Shown: piece by piece, positions 2,705-49,790 of the stretch
Layout: each line of letters starts with the position of its first letter
Position numbering within the stretch: position 1 is the first letter of the stretch
Assembly: GCA_951406725.2 (NCBI GenBank)
Contig: OX597825.1
Coordinates: 69,440,001-69,504,000 of the forward strand
Reading direction: 5' to 3'
DNA: 64,000 nt
DNA from: Octopus vulgaris
Lineage: Eukaryota
The notes under the pieces: generated by a model
Databases searched by the model: none
Told to the model about the DNA's origin: nothing
The model's input: the letters and a program-made list of their open reading frames with translations, nothing else
Program-made: the position numbers and the translations under genes

Positions 2705-3314
2705 AAGGCGGCGAGCTGGCAGAAACATTAGCACGCCGGGCGAAATGCTTACCCGTAGTTCGTCTGCCGTTAAGTTTTGAGTTCAATTTCTGTCGAGGTC
2801 GACTTTGCCTTTCATCCTTTCGGGGTCGATTAAATAAGTACCAGTTACGCACTGGGGTCGATATAATCGGCTTAATCCGTTTGTCTGTCCTTGTTTGTCC
2901 TCTCTGTGTTTAGCCCCTTGTGGGTAGTAAAGAAATAGAAATAGGTATTTCGTCTGTCTTTACGTTCTGAGTTCAAATTCCACCGAGGTCGACTTTGCCT
3001 TTCATCCTTTCGAGGTTGAGTAAATCAGTACCAGTTACGCACTGGGGTCGATATAATCGACTTAATCCGTTTGTCTGTCCTTGTTTGTCCCCTCTGTGTT
3101 TAGCCCCTTGTGGGTAGTAAAGAAATAAGTATTTCGTCTGCCGTTACGTTCTGAGTTCAAATTCTGCCGAGGTCGACTTTGCCTTTTATCCTTCCGGGGT
3201 GGAAAAATTAAGTACCAGTTACGCACTGGGGTCGAGGTAATCGACGTAATCTCCTTGACCGTCCTTGTTCGTCCCCCTCTATGTTTAGCTCCTTGCGGGC
3301 AATAAAGAAATAAG
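2705..3314 (+). mobile_element. SINE family A, trimeric copy (tRNA-like head plus three ~184-bp body units)
   Basis: Head aaggcggcgagctggcagaa with an A-box-like motif and a B-box-like GAGTTCAA. Body units restart at gtatttcgtc (2945, 3129). Confidence 0.92.
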
Positions 3315-4146: not shown

Positions 4147-4207
<61 letters not shown>

Positions 4208-4291
4208 GCAATAAAGATTCAAGTTAATTTAAATGAATTTACTTGAATATGGTACCTAACTTATATATATATATATAATGTGGGTGATTAT

Positions 4292-4569
4292 AGAATGAAG
4301 CAACAAGAATGGATAGGTTTTTAGTACAATCGTTTCATACAAGTTGCAAAAAAGGATGAAAGGCAAAGTCGACCTCGGCGGAATTTGAACTCAGAACGCA
4401 GCGGCGGACGAAATACTGCAAAGCATTTCGCCCGGCGTGCTAACGATTCTGCCAGCTCGCCGCCTTTTGTATATATCATTAACCATTTACATTTTGCAAC
4501 TTTTAATAAAACCTGTCCTTGTATGAAACGATTGTACTAAAAACCTATCCATTCTTGTTGCTTCATTCT
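4292..4569. repeat. Perfect 52-bp inverted repeat enclosing an inverted SINE-A fragment
   Basis: 4292-4343 is the exact reverse complement of 4518-4569. The right arm contains GAAA-CGATTG-TA, a hammerhead stem-III-like remnant. Confidence 0.9.
4351..4492 (-). repeat. Inverted exact duplicate of 5787-5928 (SINE-A head plus its unique flank)
   Basis: 142-bp reverse-complement identity, including copy-specific SINE variants and 24 bp of non-SINE flank. Confidence 0.9.
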
Positions 4570-4600
4570 CGCGTATATATATATATATATATATATACAT

Positions 4601-4657
<57 letters not shown>

Positions 4658-4662
<5 letters not shown>

Positions 4663-5115
4663 AAAGTCAAAATGCGATAAAATAAAATTAATTATTATCG
4701 CCGGTGTTCTAGCACAGGCCATATGTTATTCATATATAAGTACATTAAAAGGCGAAGTATGTACTAGATACACAGAAGCTTGATAAATTTAGTGAAATGA
4801 AAATAAAAACTTTTACTAACTCGGTTCATCTTATACTGCAGTTTCTTTTTTTTCATCAATAAAAATAATTTATTTACTCAGGGAGACTCGTCAGTAAGAG
4901 CCCTGTTATTCTGAAATCGCACCTCAATAGAAGCATGTGCGTCTACTAATTTGCTCTTTCTGACTAATCAGATCACTGCGCAGACGCAGAACGTACCCGA
5001 CAAACTAGGGGTTTCTGGTATATAGTCTAACGCTCAAAATTTATCGAGAAATATGTAAACAAAGTCAAAATGCGATAAAATAAAATTAATTATTATCGCC
5101 GGTGTTCTAGCACAG

Positions 5116-5122
<7 letters not shown>
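4658..5122 (-). mobile_element. Small non-coding element in (TA)n with ~67-bp direct terminal repeats and a hammerhead-like motif (Penelope-like/retrozyme candidate)
   Basis: 4658-4724 repeats at 5056-5122 (period 398). Both flanks are (TA)n. Hammerhead motif at 4829-4899. Confidence 0.7.
4829..4899 (-). ncRNA. Type-I hammerhead-ribozyme-like motif (base of stem II decayed)
   Basis: Minus strand reads TCTTA-CTGACGA-[gtctc...AT-rich hairpin...]-GAAA-CTGCAG-TA-TAAGA. Stem I TCTTA/TAAGA, canonical CUGANGA and GAAA, palindromic stem III ACTGCAGT, GUA triplet. Confidence 0.7.
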
Positions 5123-5206
<84 letters not shown>

Positions 5207-5810
5207 GCTGGCAGAACCAGTAGCACATTAGCACATTGTACAAAATGCTTGCTTAGCAGCTTTACTTGCCACATTCTGAGCTCAAATACCCATCAGTTCG
5301 ACTTTGTCTTTAATTCTTGATAACATGTGTATAATCTTCCGGTAGATAAAATGAGTATAACTATCAATTGAATAGTTGGAGCAATGTAAACAACTTTTGC
5401 GTCCCATCAGAATTACTGGTCATTTGTCAAAATTCCAAAATTATTCAATGAGCTCTCTGCAATGAAGGAGAACAAGGATCGAGGTTCTTAATTTCGTTTC
5501 TTATTTCTCGTTCCATTCTTTGTATCAACCTTCTACACTTTTCTTCAGTGTCTCTTTTTTTTTGGTTATTTCCCTACTGTCCAGCGTCCTGCATGATTGT
5601 TTTAAGAAACATAGCGTACTTTATAAATGTGCCTGTTCAAGTACCATAATAAGATGAAAATATTAGGAGCTCTTTTGATTGTGTATTTAATTTGACACAC
5701 ACGCATACACACAGACACATACATGTATGTGTGCCTGTGTGTGTGTGTAGATAAAATTGCCAGTGTGGAAAATTTGCCAATGTGATATGTAAATGGTTAA
5801 TGATATATAC

Positions 5811-6045
5811 AAAAGGCGGCGAGCTGGCAGAATCGTTAGCACGCCGGGCGAAATGCTTTGCAGTATTTCGTCCGCCGCTGCGTTCTGAGTTCAAATTCCG
5901 CCGAGGTCGACTTTGCCTTTCATCCTTTCGGGGTCGATAAATTAAGTACCAGTTACGCACTGGGGTCGATGTCACCGACTTAATCGGTTTTTCTGTCCTT
6001 GTTTGTCCCCTCTATGTTTAGCCCCTTGTGGGTAATAAAGAAATA
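5811..6045 (+). mobile_element. SINE family A monomer with 16-bp TSD
   Basis: Full head-to-tail copy. TSD ggttaatgatatatac at 5795-5810 and 6046-6061. Confidence 0.95.
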
Positions 6046-6495
6046 GGTTAATGATATATACTCCAAATTACACTACAGCGATCCTTAAGTAGAGAAGTAG
6101 ATTCCACTTAGTAGCGCTGGGAGTCGTCAATTTAAAAAAAAAAAAAAACTCTCTGTCCTACTGGCAACACGTTAGGCGACAGTCGTTTATGGGGATTTAT
6201 CATTTTTATTAGAAATAAAATAGTTAAACCAGGCAGAATTTATAGACTTGGTTAGCATTGGAATTTCAAGAAAACATTCTGTTATCAGCAGCATGAGACG
6301 TTACTTAGGATAAATCATTGAGCGTGTAACCCCTGGACCTGTTTCGTTTCGGCGTCCTCTGAAATATATTGCGTGTTTTAGCACAATAAATCAATAAAAG
6401 GATTTCTCCCCCGACGGTAATCTCAACGTCTGCTGTTTCAAATGCACATACACATTAGGTATATTACACACACACATACACACACATACACACAC

Positions 6496-49191: not shown

Positions 49192-49790
49192 AAGGCGGCG
49201 AGCTAGCAGAAACGTTAGCACGCCGGGCGAAATGCGTAGCCGTATTTCATCTGCCGTTATATTCTGTGTGCAAATTCCGCCGAGGTCGACTTTGCCTTTA
49301 ATCCTTTCGAGGTCGATAAATTAAGTACCAGTTACGCACTGGGGTCGATATAATCAACTTAATACGTTTGTCTGTCCTTCCTTGCCCTCTCTGTGTTTAG
49401 CCCCTTGTGGGTAGTAAAGAAATAGGTATTTCGTCTGCTGTTATGTTCAGAGTTCAAATTCCGCCGAGGTCGACTTTGCCTTTCATCCTTTCGGGGTCGA
49501 TGAATTAAGTACCAGTTACGCACTGGGTCGATATAATCAACTTAATCCGTTTGTCTGTCCTTGTTTTTCCCCTCTATGTTTAGCCCCTTGTGGGTATTAA
49601 AGAAATAGGTATTTCGTCTGCCGCTACGTTCTGAGTTCAAATTCCGCCGAGGTCGACTTTGCCTTTCATCCTTTCGGGGTCGATAAATTAAGTACCAGTT
49701 AAGCACTGGGTCGATGTAATCGACTTAATCCTTTTGTCTGTCCTTCTTTGTCCCCTCTATGTTTAGCCCCCTGTGGGCAATAAAGAAATA
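49192..49790 (+). mobile_element. SINE family A trimer within a 16-bp TSD
   Basis: Units restart at gtatttcgtc (49426, 49609). TSD agaaattatagaaaat at 49176-49191 and 49791-49806. Confidence 0.95.

Follow-up and report, generated by a model that had tools for sequence, protein, structure and literature searches.

The window element and its surroundings

The window, i.e. the whole stretch of 64,000 nucleotides of Octopus vulgaris DNA that was analysed, carries on its minus strand a non-coding repeat unit of 398 nt with a putative hammerhead ribozyme, inserted into a (TA)n microsatellite next to the remnant of a Penelope-like element (PLE). The features are as follows:

4658-5122, minus strand: whole insertion of 1.17 units, with a fixed 3' end at 4658 and a random 5' truncation at about 5119-5122
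4658-5055, minus strand: full 398-nt non-coding unit, with no stop-free frame above 40 codons
5056-5122, minus strand: 5'-truncated upstream unit (the "67-bp redundancy"), its final 4 nt being microhomology with the TA target
4829-4899, minus strand: type I hammerhead with a long stem II hairpin extension, predicted to be cleaved between 4834 and 4833
4846-4849, minus strand: stem II 3' arm, AAAA (AGAC in the nearest relative), with changes at 4848 and 4846
4732-4738, minus strand: internal UAUAUAU, unit position ~318-324, the second fixed end, at which inverted arms of other copies stop
4574-4657, no strand: (TA)n/(CA)n target microsatellite on the 3' side of the element, in which the inverted arm of the Hydra-clade PLE remnant tails off
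5123-5203, no strand: (TA)n target microsatellite on the 5' side
4204-4573, no strand: host context, what remains of the 3' part of an autonomous Hydra-clade PLE, in two arms (4204-4345, minus, and 4493-4573, plus)

An earlier note on this DNA had described an exact direct repeat bounding a non-coding unit, the whole lying inside (TA)n, and all three observations hold. Positions 4658-4724 are identical to 5056-5122 in 67 of 67 bases, with a mismatched adjoining base on either side and a spacing of 398 between the two repeats; the last four bases of the repeat, ATAT at 5119-5122, may be assigned to the TA flank just as well. In the concatenated unit, stop-free frames reach 37-40 codons at most, and TA runs border the element on both sides (4574-4659 and 5119-5203).

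The hammerhead elements named in the same note were likewise located on the minus strand. CUGACGA occupies 4894-4888, GAAA 4845-4842 and the GUA triplet 4836-4834, the order at 4845-4834 being GAAAC-UGCA-GUA. Stem I (UCUUA/UAAGA, 4899-4895 with 4833-4829) consists of five perfect pairs, with a few further pairs beyond an internal loop, and stem III is palindromic (ACUGCAGU, 4842-4835). Stem II is unpairable in this copy, as GUCU stands opposite AAAA where relatives have AGAC. The closest copy differs from the window unit by five substitutions and one gap; three of the substitutions lie inside the hammerhead (4856, 4848 and 4846), that at 4856 in the stem II extension hairpin. The Rfam model Hammerhead_1 scores the window copy at 19.1 bits against a gathering score of 34, and no Rfam match at gathering level was found anywhere in the window. 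With AAAA instead of AGAC in the 3' arm of stem II, the ribozyme of the window copy is damaged and likely inactive, and the copy is likely dead. Its identification as a hammerhead rests on the family, through the matches to its core and the covariation of stem II described below.

The neighbourhood contains further repeats. Between one arm of the Hydra-clade remnant and the other sits 4351-4492, a 142-nt exact inverted copy of 5787-5928, apparently local DNA captured at the inversion junction. It comprises flank, target duplication and the 5' part of a SINE-like element, which lies at 5795-6061 with a 16-bp target duplication (5795-5810 and 6046-6061). At 2755-3314 and again at 49242-49790, units of ~185 nt related to this SINE-like element are arranged in tandem.

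A dispersed family with a covarying hammerhead

In a genome search covering 2.8 Gb in 227 contigs, an 18-nt hammerhead-core pattern gave 390 exact matches and the full CUGANGAG...GAAAC pattern 250, with none for the control in either case, while a strict 3'-junction pattern gave 122. A DNA similarity search yielded at least 72 matches from the 40 best of 786 candidates, which were scored. The window unit is, by these pattern counts, one of several hundred copies, and the single-copy sequence considered in the earlier note can be dismissed. At least five subfamilies can be told apart among the copies, which are dispersed over many contigs and share 73-99% identity with the window unit.

The multimers sought in the earlier note exist. 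Arrays on many contigs hold two to five hammerheads at a spacing of ~400 nt (the window copy has one); the longest arrays read reach 4.3 units, and arrays of four to five units occur in three subfamilies. The length of the terminal repeat varies from locus to locus, so there is no fixed LTR. Units within 48 arrays differ at 121 of 11,464 positions (~1%, alignment-edge artefacts included); 19 of the 48 are identical between units, and only three differences recur between loci. Most differences in ten longer arrays are private to one unit, and four columns in three of these ten partition the units 2 vs 2 or 2 vs 3.

At the family level the hammerhead core shows little or no variation. In relatives stem II is paired, with covarying, compensatory changes, so that the restored stem II sought in the earlier note is found elsewhere in the genome. 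Depending on the subfamily it reads GUCU/AGAC, GCCU/AGGC or GCCA/UGGC; four of its five pairs change on both sides, and one is U-A in eight sequences and C-G in eight. In an alignment of 16 sequences, hand-chosen from 91 distinct segments to represent the variants, 89.8% of the cells pair, compared with 30-43% in slid controls; as the 16 are related, the shuffle counts are not probabilities. This covariation shows selection acting on the predicted ribozyme. Loop II is formed by an additional hairpin of ~35-40 nt, and helix III has 2 bp with a palindromic loop, a form described as working as a dimer (PMC4209133).

In 13 of the 91 distinct hammerhead segments, CCGAUGA is accompanied by an A-C mismatch at the stem II base, and A-C occurs in others too. 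The CCGAUGA/A-C subfamily (L007, L064, L073-L076 and others) is widespread and includes arrays of more than four units. Its spread calls into question how much cleavage is required. For each of the nine sequences folded, the minimum-energy fold is more stable than the active one by 2-8 kcal/mol, the folding of the window monomer is unremarkable (z = -1.4 and +0.9), and a stem III duplex forms in one of two co-folded hammerhead pairs. Unlike the highly self-paired circles reported in PMC7229834, the circular fold beats shuffles in stability for only one of five units. Hammerheads of other families, with a long loop II and a palindromic GAUC stem III, were also seen in this genome (L222, oriented 6859; L213, oriented 8567).

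Ends of the insertions and the template

The earlier note had interpreted the 67 bp as terminal redundancy and suggested that the ends of copies might be circularly permuted. A common 3' point was found in all 27 independent loci picked by similarity (three overlapping loci dropped). Such a sample is biased, so loci picked by the hammerhead pattern only were used. The family 3' end (window 4658, in the ribozyme sense) is reached by 53 of these 57 loci, i.e. 21 of the 22 from contig C1 and 32 of the 35 from C2-C4. Of the four exceptions, two end at unit position 324 and one at 280, and one is rearranged. The fixed 3' end in loci chosen blindly with regard to their ends rules out free circular permutation, and only the 5' end varies. 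The 67 bp are thus the product of a chance 5' truncation and no designed repeat, and the window 1.17-mer is one draw from the family's distribution of 5' ends.

Copy length was measured for 97 of 100 listed 3'-junction matches, three being lost in de-duplication or unresolved. It ranges from 27 to 1121 nt with a median of 240 nt; 66 of the 97 copies are shorter than one unit, and in 77 a TA run lies 5' of the copy. Spread at the DNA level, whether as a satellite, a MITE-like element or an LTR-like one whose terminal repeats measure 67 bp, or by local duplication, would fit the appearance of a single locus, which resembles a unit flanked by direct repeats. For the family it is extremely improbable, given a repeat length that is different at every locus, variable 5' ends, a majority of copies shorter than one unit, strand-asymmetric ends and the dispersal over many contigs. 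Plant LTR retrozymes are also non-coding and hammerhead-bearing, with direct repeats ending the single locus, but are described as having type III hammerheads in fixed LTRs, PBS/PPT and a 4-bp TSD (PMC7229834; 10.64898/2026.07.22.740005). As the window hammerhead is of type I and lies outside a repeat of random length, identity with the plant type was rejected.

The 5' junctions, of which 117 of 166 were resolved, are spread over the unit. TA microhomology of at least 2 nt is present at 38 of 67 clean junctions, against 24% expected (p 7e-9). A second, inverted arm was found in 11 insertions, and 8 of the 11 end at UAUAUAU, a second fixed AU-rich site. These arms stop at position 324 in seven cases by BLAST and in one more (L244) by eye; the rest stop at 250, 298 and 302. 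In the sequence, UAUAUAU spans unit positions 318-324 and CAUAU follows the main end. Both fixed ends sit where the RNA could pair with a nicked TA repeat, at which copying would be primed.

PLEs are described as showing 5' truncation, partial tandems, an adjacent inverted 5'-truncated copy and a bias for (TA)n (PMC8557442). The fixed 3' end, scattered 5' ends, inverted arms and (TA)n targets of the window family match these features as given in that source, so that, at the level of sequence, its insertion pattern is a Penelope-like one. The frame proposed in the earlier note, a retrozyme or a partial-tandem Penelope, is the right one; free permutation of the ends and a designed terminal redundancy are not supported.

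The predicted cleavage site is crossed by 59 of the 97 measured copies, and twice by 10, which points to either a circle or an uncleaved multimer as the template. A cut linear monomer as the sole template was rejected: the cut site is traversed by most of the longer copies, and it shows no accumulation of 5' ends, falling inside 3 of the 117 5'-junction intervals, not above other TA sites. The length curve of the 97 copies has no step at 176 or 398 nt.

The preferred reading, to which a probability of roughly 0.6 is given, is that the window element is a damaged copy of the hammerhead family, inserted into (TA)n by a PLE RT/endonuclease through target-primed copying, probably round an RNA circle. 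Within it, a non-autonomous element moved by PLE machinery is very probable, whereas the circle as template has slightly better than even odds. We infer five steps, alongside the observed family, covariation, ends, TA targets, microhomology, inverted arms and intact PLEs. Tandem arrays would be transcribed, and two hammerheads would cut, aided by palindromic pairing of stem III. The 398-nt monomer would then be ligated into a circle. A PLE endonuclease would nick (TA)n; downstream of the cut site, at a distance of 176 nt, the freed TA end would pair with ACAUAU. The RT would copy back through the ribozyme site and round the circle to a random stop, reached after 1.17 turns in the window copy. 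Finally, the second target end would join via TA microhomology, or use the internal UAUAUAU to prime another arm in inverted orientation.

The circle is supported by the site-crossing copies, the stepless length curve and the array differences of ~1%, mostly private to a single unit. The four partitioning columns speak against one circle, since a single circle cannot yield them without homoplasy or later conversion. A PLE-driven insertion from an uncleaved, linear read-through transcript of an array, with a hammerhead that trims only the 5' end or is mostly idle, would explain these columns and would leave an identical 1.17-mer. It would also account for the crossing of the cleavage site, for overlapping inverted arms (with the second primer on the upstream unit) and for the spread of weakened-core subfamilies along with the weak predicted active fold; moreover, only one of nine Xenopus dimers is reported as cleaved (preprint 10.64898/2026.07.22.740005). 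Nevertheless, this alternative is considered unlikely. Repeated 5' truncation should shrink arrays that are not regenerated, yet arrays of four to five units persist in three subfamilies, and so few unit-to-unit differences recur between loci across the 48 arrays. In addition, the covariation of stem II signifies selection on the ribozyme, and circles are documented for the retrozyme class (PMC7229834). The spread of weakened-core subfamilies, an active fold above the minimum and a weak likeness to the candidate carriers count against the preferred reading. Among the listed sequencing runs that hold the unit, none is recorded as RNA. Assembled contigs from three "RNA?" runs and one other cover the unit; such contigs are blind to strand, level and circles.

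Candidate carriers and related elements

A search for GIY-YIG gave 6136 first-look candidates, of which the best 150 were scored; the search for a partner covered 20 long loci picked by GIY-YIG and one Hydra family. A young PLE family with many copies has a stop-free frame of 781 aa, with RT and GIY-YIG, the latter at the C terminus. It contains a CX4CxxC linker and is Neptune-like when classed by the motifs of PMC8557442. Its fixed end lies in (TA)n, and a tail of ~30 nt is present in 4 of 11 full-frame copies. Loci of this family (L211-L221, e.g. G000:C2:55004000-55013900) have a 3' region of ~1 kb with repeated TGACGTC and a TATA-like box, in which a pattern search found no canonical hammerhead.

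The Hydra-clade PLE that flanks the window element is abundant, with 1055 exact genome matches to a 21-mer, and of its hammerhead the remnant in the window retains just one half, that with GAAAC and stem III. An intact Hydra-type frame of 947 residues with a long asparagine-rich linker is present at L314:1851-4691 (minus strand). No Pfam match was obtained for this frame, which is classed by motifs: RWK, DKT, CxCX5C, CxxC and CxH, without CCHH, are the Hydra motifs of PMC8557442. The element carries a long-loop hammerhead ~150 nt from its end and 1.5 kb past the stop, and has two fixed ends in (TA)n ~118 nt apart, the listed copies being mostly minus/plus pairs. The (TA)n target is common to the unit family and to both the intact Neptune-like and Hydra-clade PLEs.

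The position of this hammerhead and the matching two-end pattern would suit a unit that is the 3' pseudo-LTR of an unsampled autonomous PLE, the copies being its truncated ends, and the ~180 arms read belong to several hundred. Such an origin is nonetheless quite improbable: reading 5' from the hammerhead leads back, as many as four times, into the 3' end of the unit itself and never into an ORF. No unit copy joined to a PLE ORF was found among the ~180 arms and the flanks read, and tblastn with the Hydra protein gave no match in 186 upstream flanks of unit copies. Upstream flanks other than TA consist of the other arm, a SINE tail or the tail of a separate PLE. The window unit as an autonomous PLE was likewise rejected, as the unit has no ORF and no RT/GIY-YIG frame is contiguous with the arms read. 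A GC-rich, divergent PLE fragment with ~28% identity to the 781-aa protein (L177:1083-3055, minus strand) stands back to back with a 4.2-unit array; it was discarded as an attached partner because it lies on the opposite strand, beyond the TA run.

Alignment of the whole unit to the Hydra 3' region was not above shuffles (p 0.67-0.88). Likeness at the 3' end is weak, for the Hydra end (two of six subfamily ends, p 0.02-0.04, uncorrected) as for other PLE ends (one of eight, p 0.03, uncorrected). An E-value scan of seven PLE loci with Rfam returned, among 150 of 188 rows listed, microsatellite-driven miRNA matches only. We infer a PLE as the carrier without naming which one, since no unit is joined to either ORF and all that the sequences have in common is a weak motif at the 3' end.

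Animal non-LTR retrozymes were defined by Cervera & de la Pena 2020 (PMC7229834), with circles in coral, mussel and axolotl, and PLEs were named there as likely carriers. In Xenopus, 24 of 57 retrozyme families are linked to pLTRs, and PLEs make up 21 of 22 matched TEs (Li, Clavereau & Pollet 2026, 10.64898/2026.07.22.740005). Both sources propose PLE carriers and leave the mechanism open. The AT-rich window unit agrees with the sequence criteria of these retrozymes, which are non-coding, of 150-450 bp and below 50% GC, with one type I hammerhead per unit and a short palindromic helix III; dispersed monomers, tandem arrays and co-existing PLEs are shared as well, and the size is near that of the 350-390-bp units of mussel. 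Judged by these features, the family is a new one in a known class. It differs in its hairpin extension, where the described retrozymes have a short loop II, and in its strict targeting of (TA)n. The animal retrozyme descriptions compared mention neither a fixed 3' end nor 5' truncation or inverted arms. Unlike 24 of the 57 Xenopus families, the window family has no detected homology to a PLE pLTR. No account of it, or of any cephalopod retrozyme, was found in the openly accessible literature searched.

With Hydra and Neptune PLEs (Craig et al. 2021, PMC8557442; Cervera & de la Pena 2014, PMC4209133), the family shares, besides the insertion pattern, a hammerhead near the 3' end. Unlike the PLEs described there, it lacks an ORF, the repeat is the entire element, the hammerhead is canonical with a helix III and not the minimal variant, and the 30-40-bp tail was not seen on the unit copies read. 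Chlamys MRC1 (PMC8557442) is similar in that non-coding PLE passengers form pLTRs and head-to-tail copies in microsatellites. Elements of the MRC1 type are described as sharing their 3' end with an autonomous partner and as lacking canonical hammerheads, whereas the window family has a hammerhead, and its 3' sharing is weak at best.

The class is already known, and the window locus itself is likely a dead copy. Nevertheless, a single genome offers putative priming sites resolved to the base, together with the TA target and two candidate enzymes that are intact, so that the link between PLEs and retrozymes and the question of circle versus multimer are directly testable in this family. A more specific proposal, put forward tentatively and with some doubt, is that the 398-nt circle has two AU-rich sites, separated by 74 nt, at which a PLE-type RT primes internally with the two nicked TA ends of the target before rolling across the ribozyme junction. 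If this were true, the resident Hydra-clade PLE, with its matching two-site pattern, would be the carrier, and the insertion footprints would be a direct genomic record of the retrotransposition of an animal retrozyme circle.
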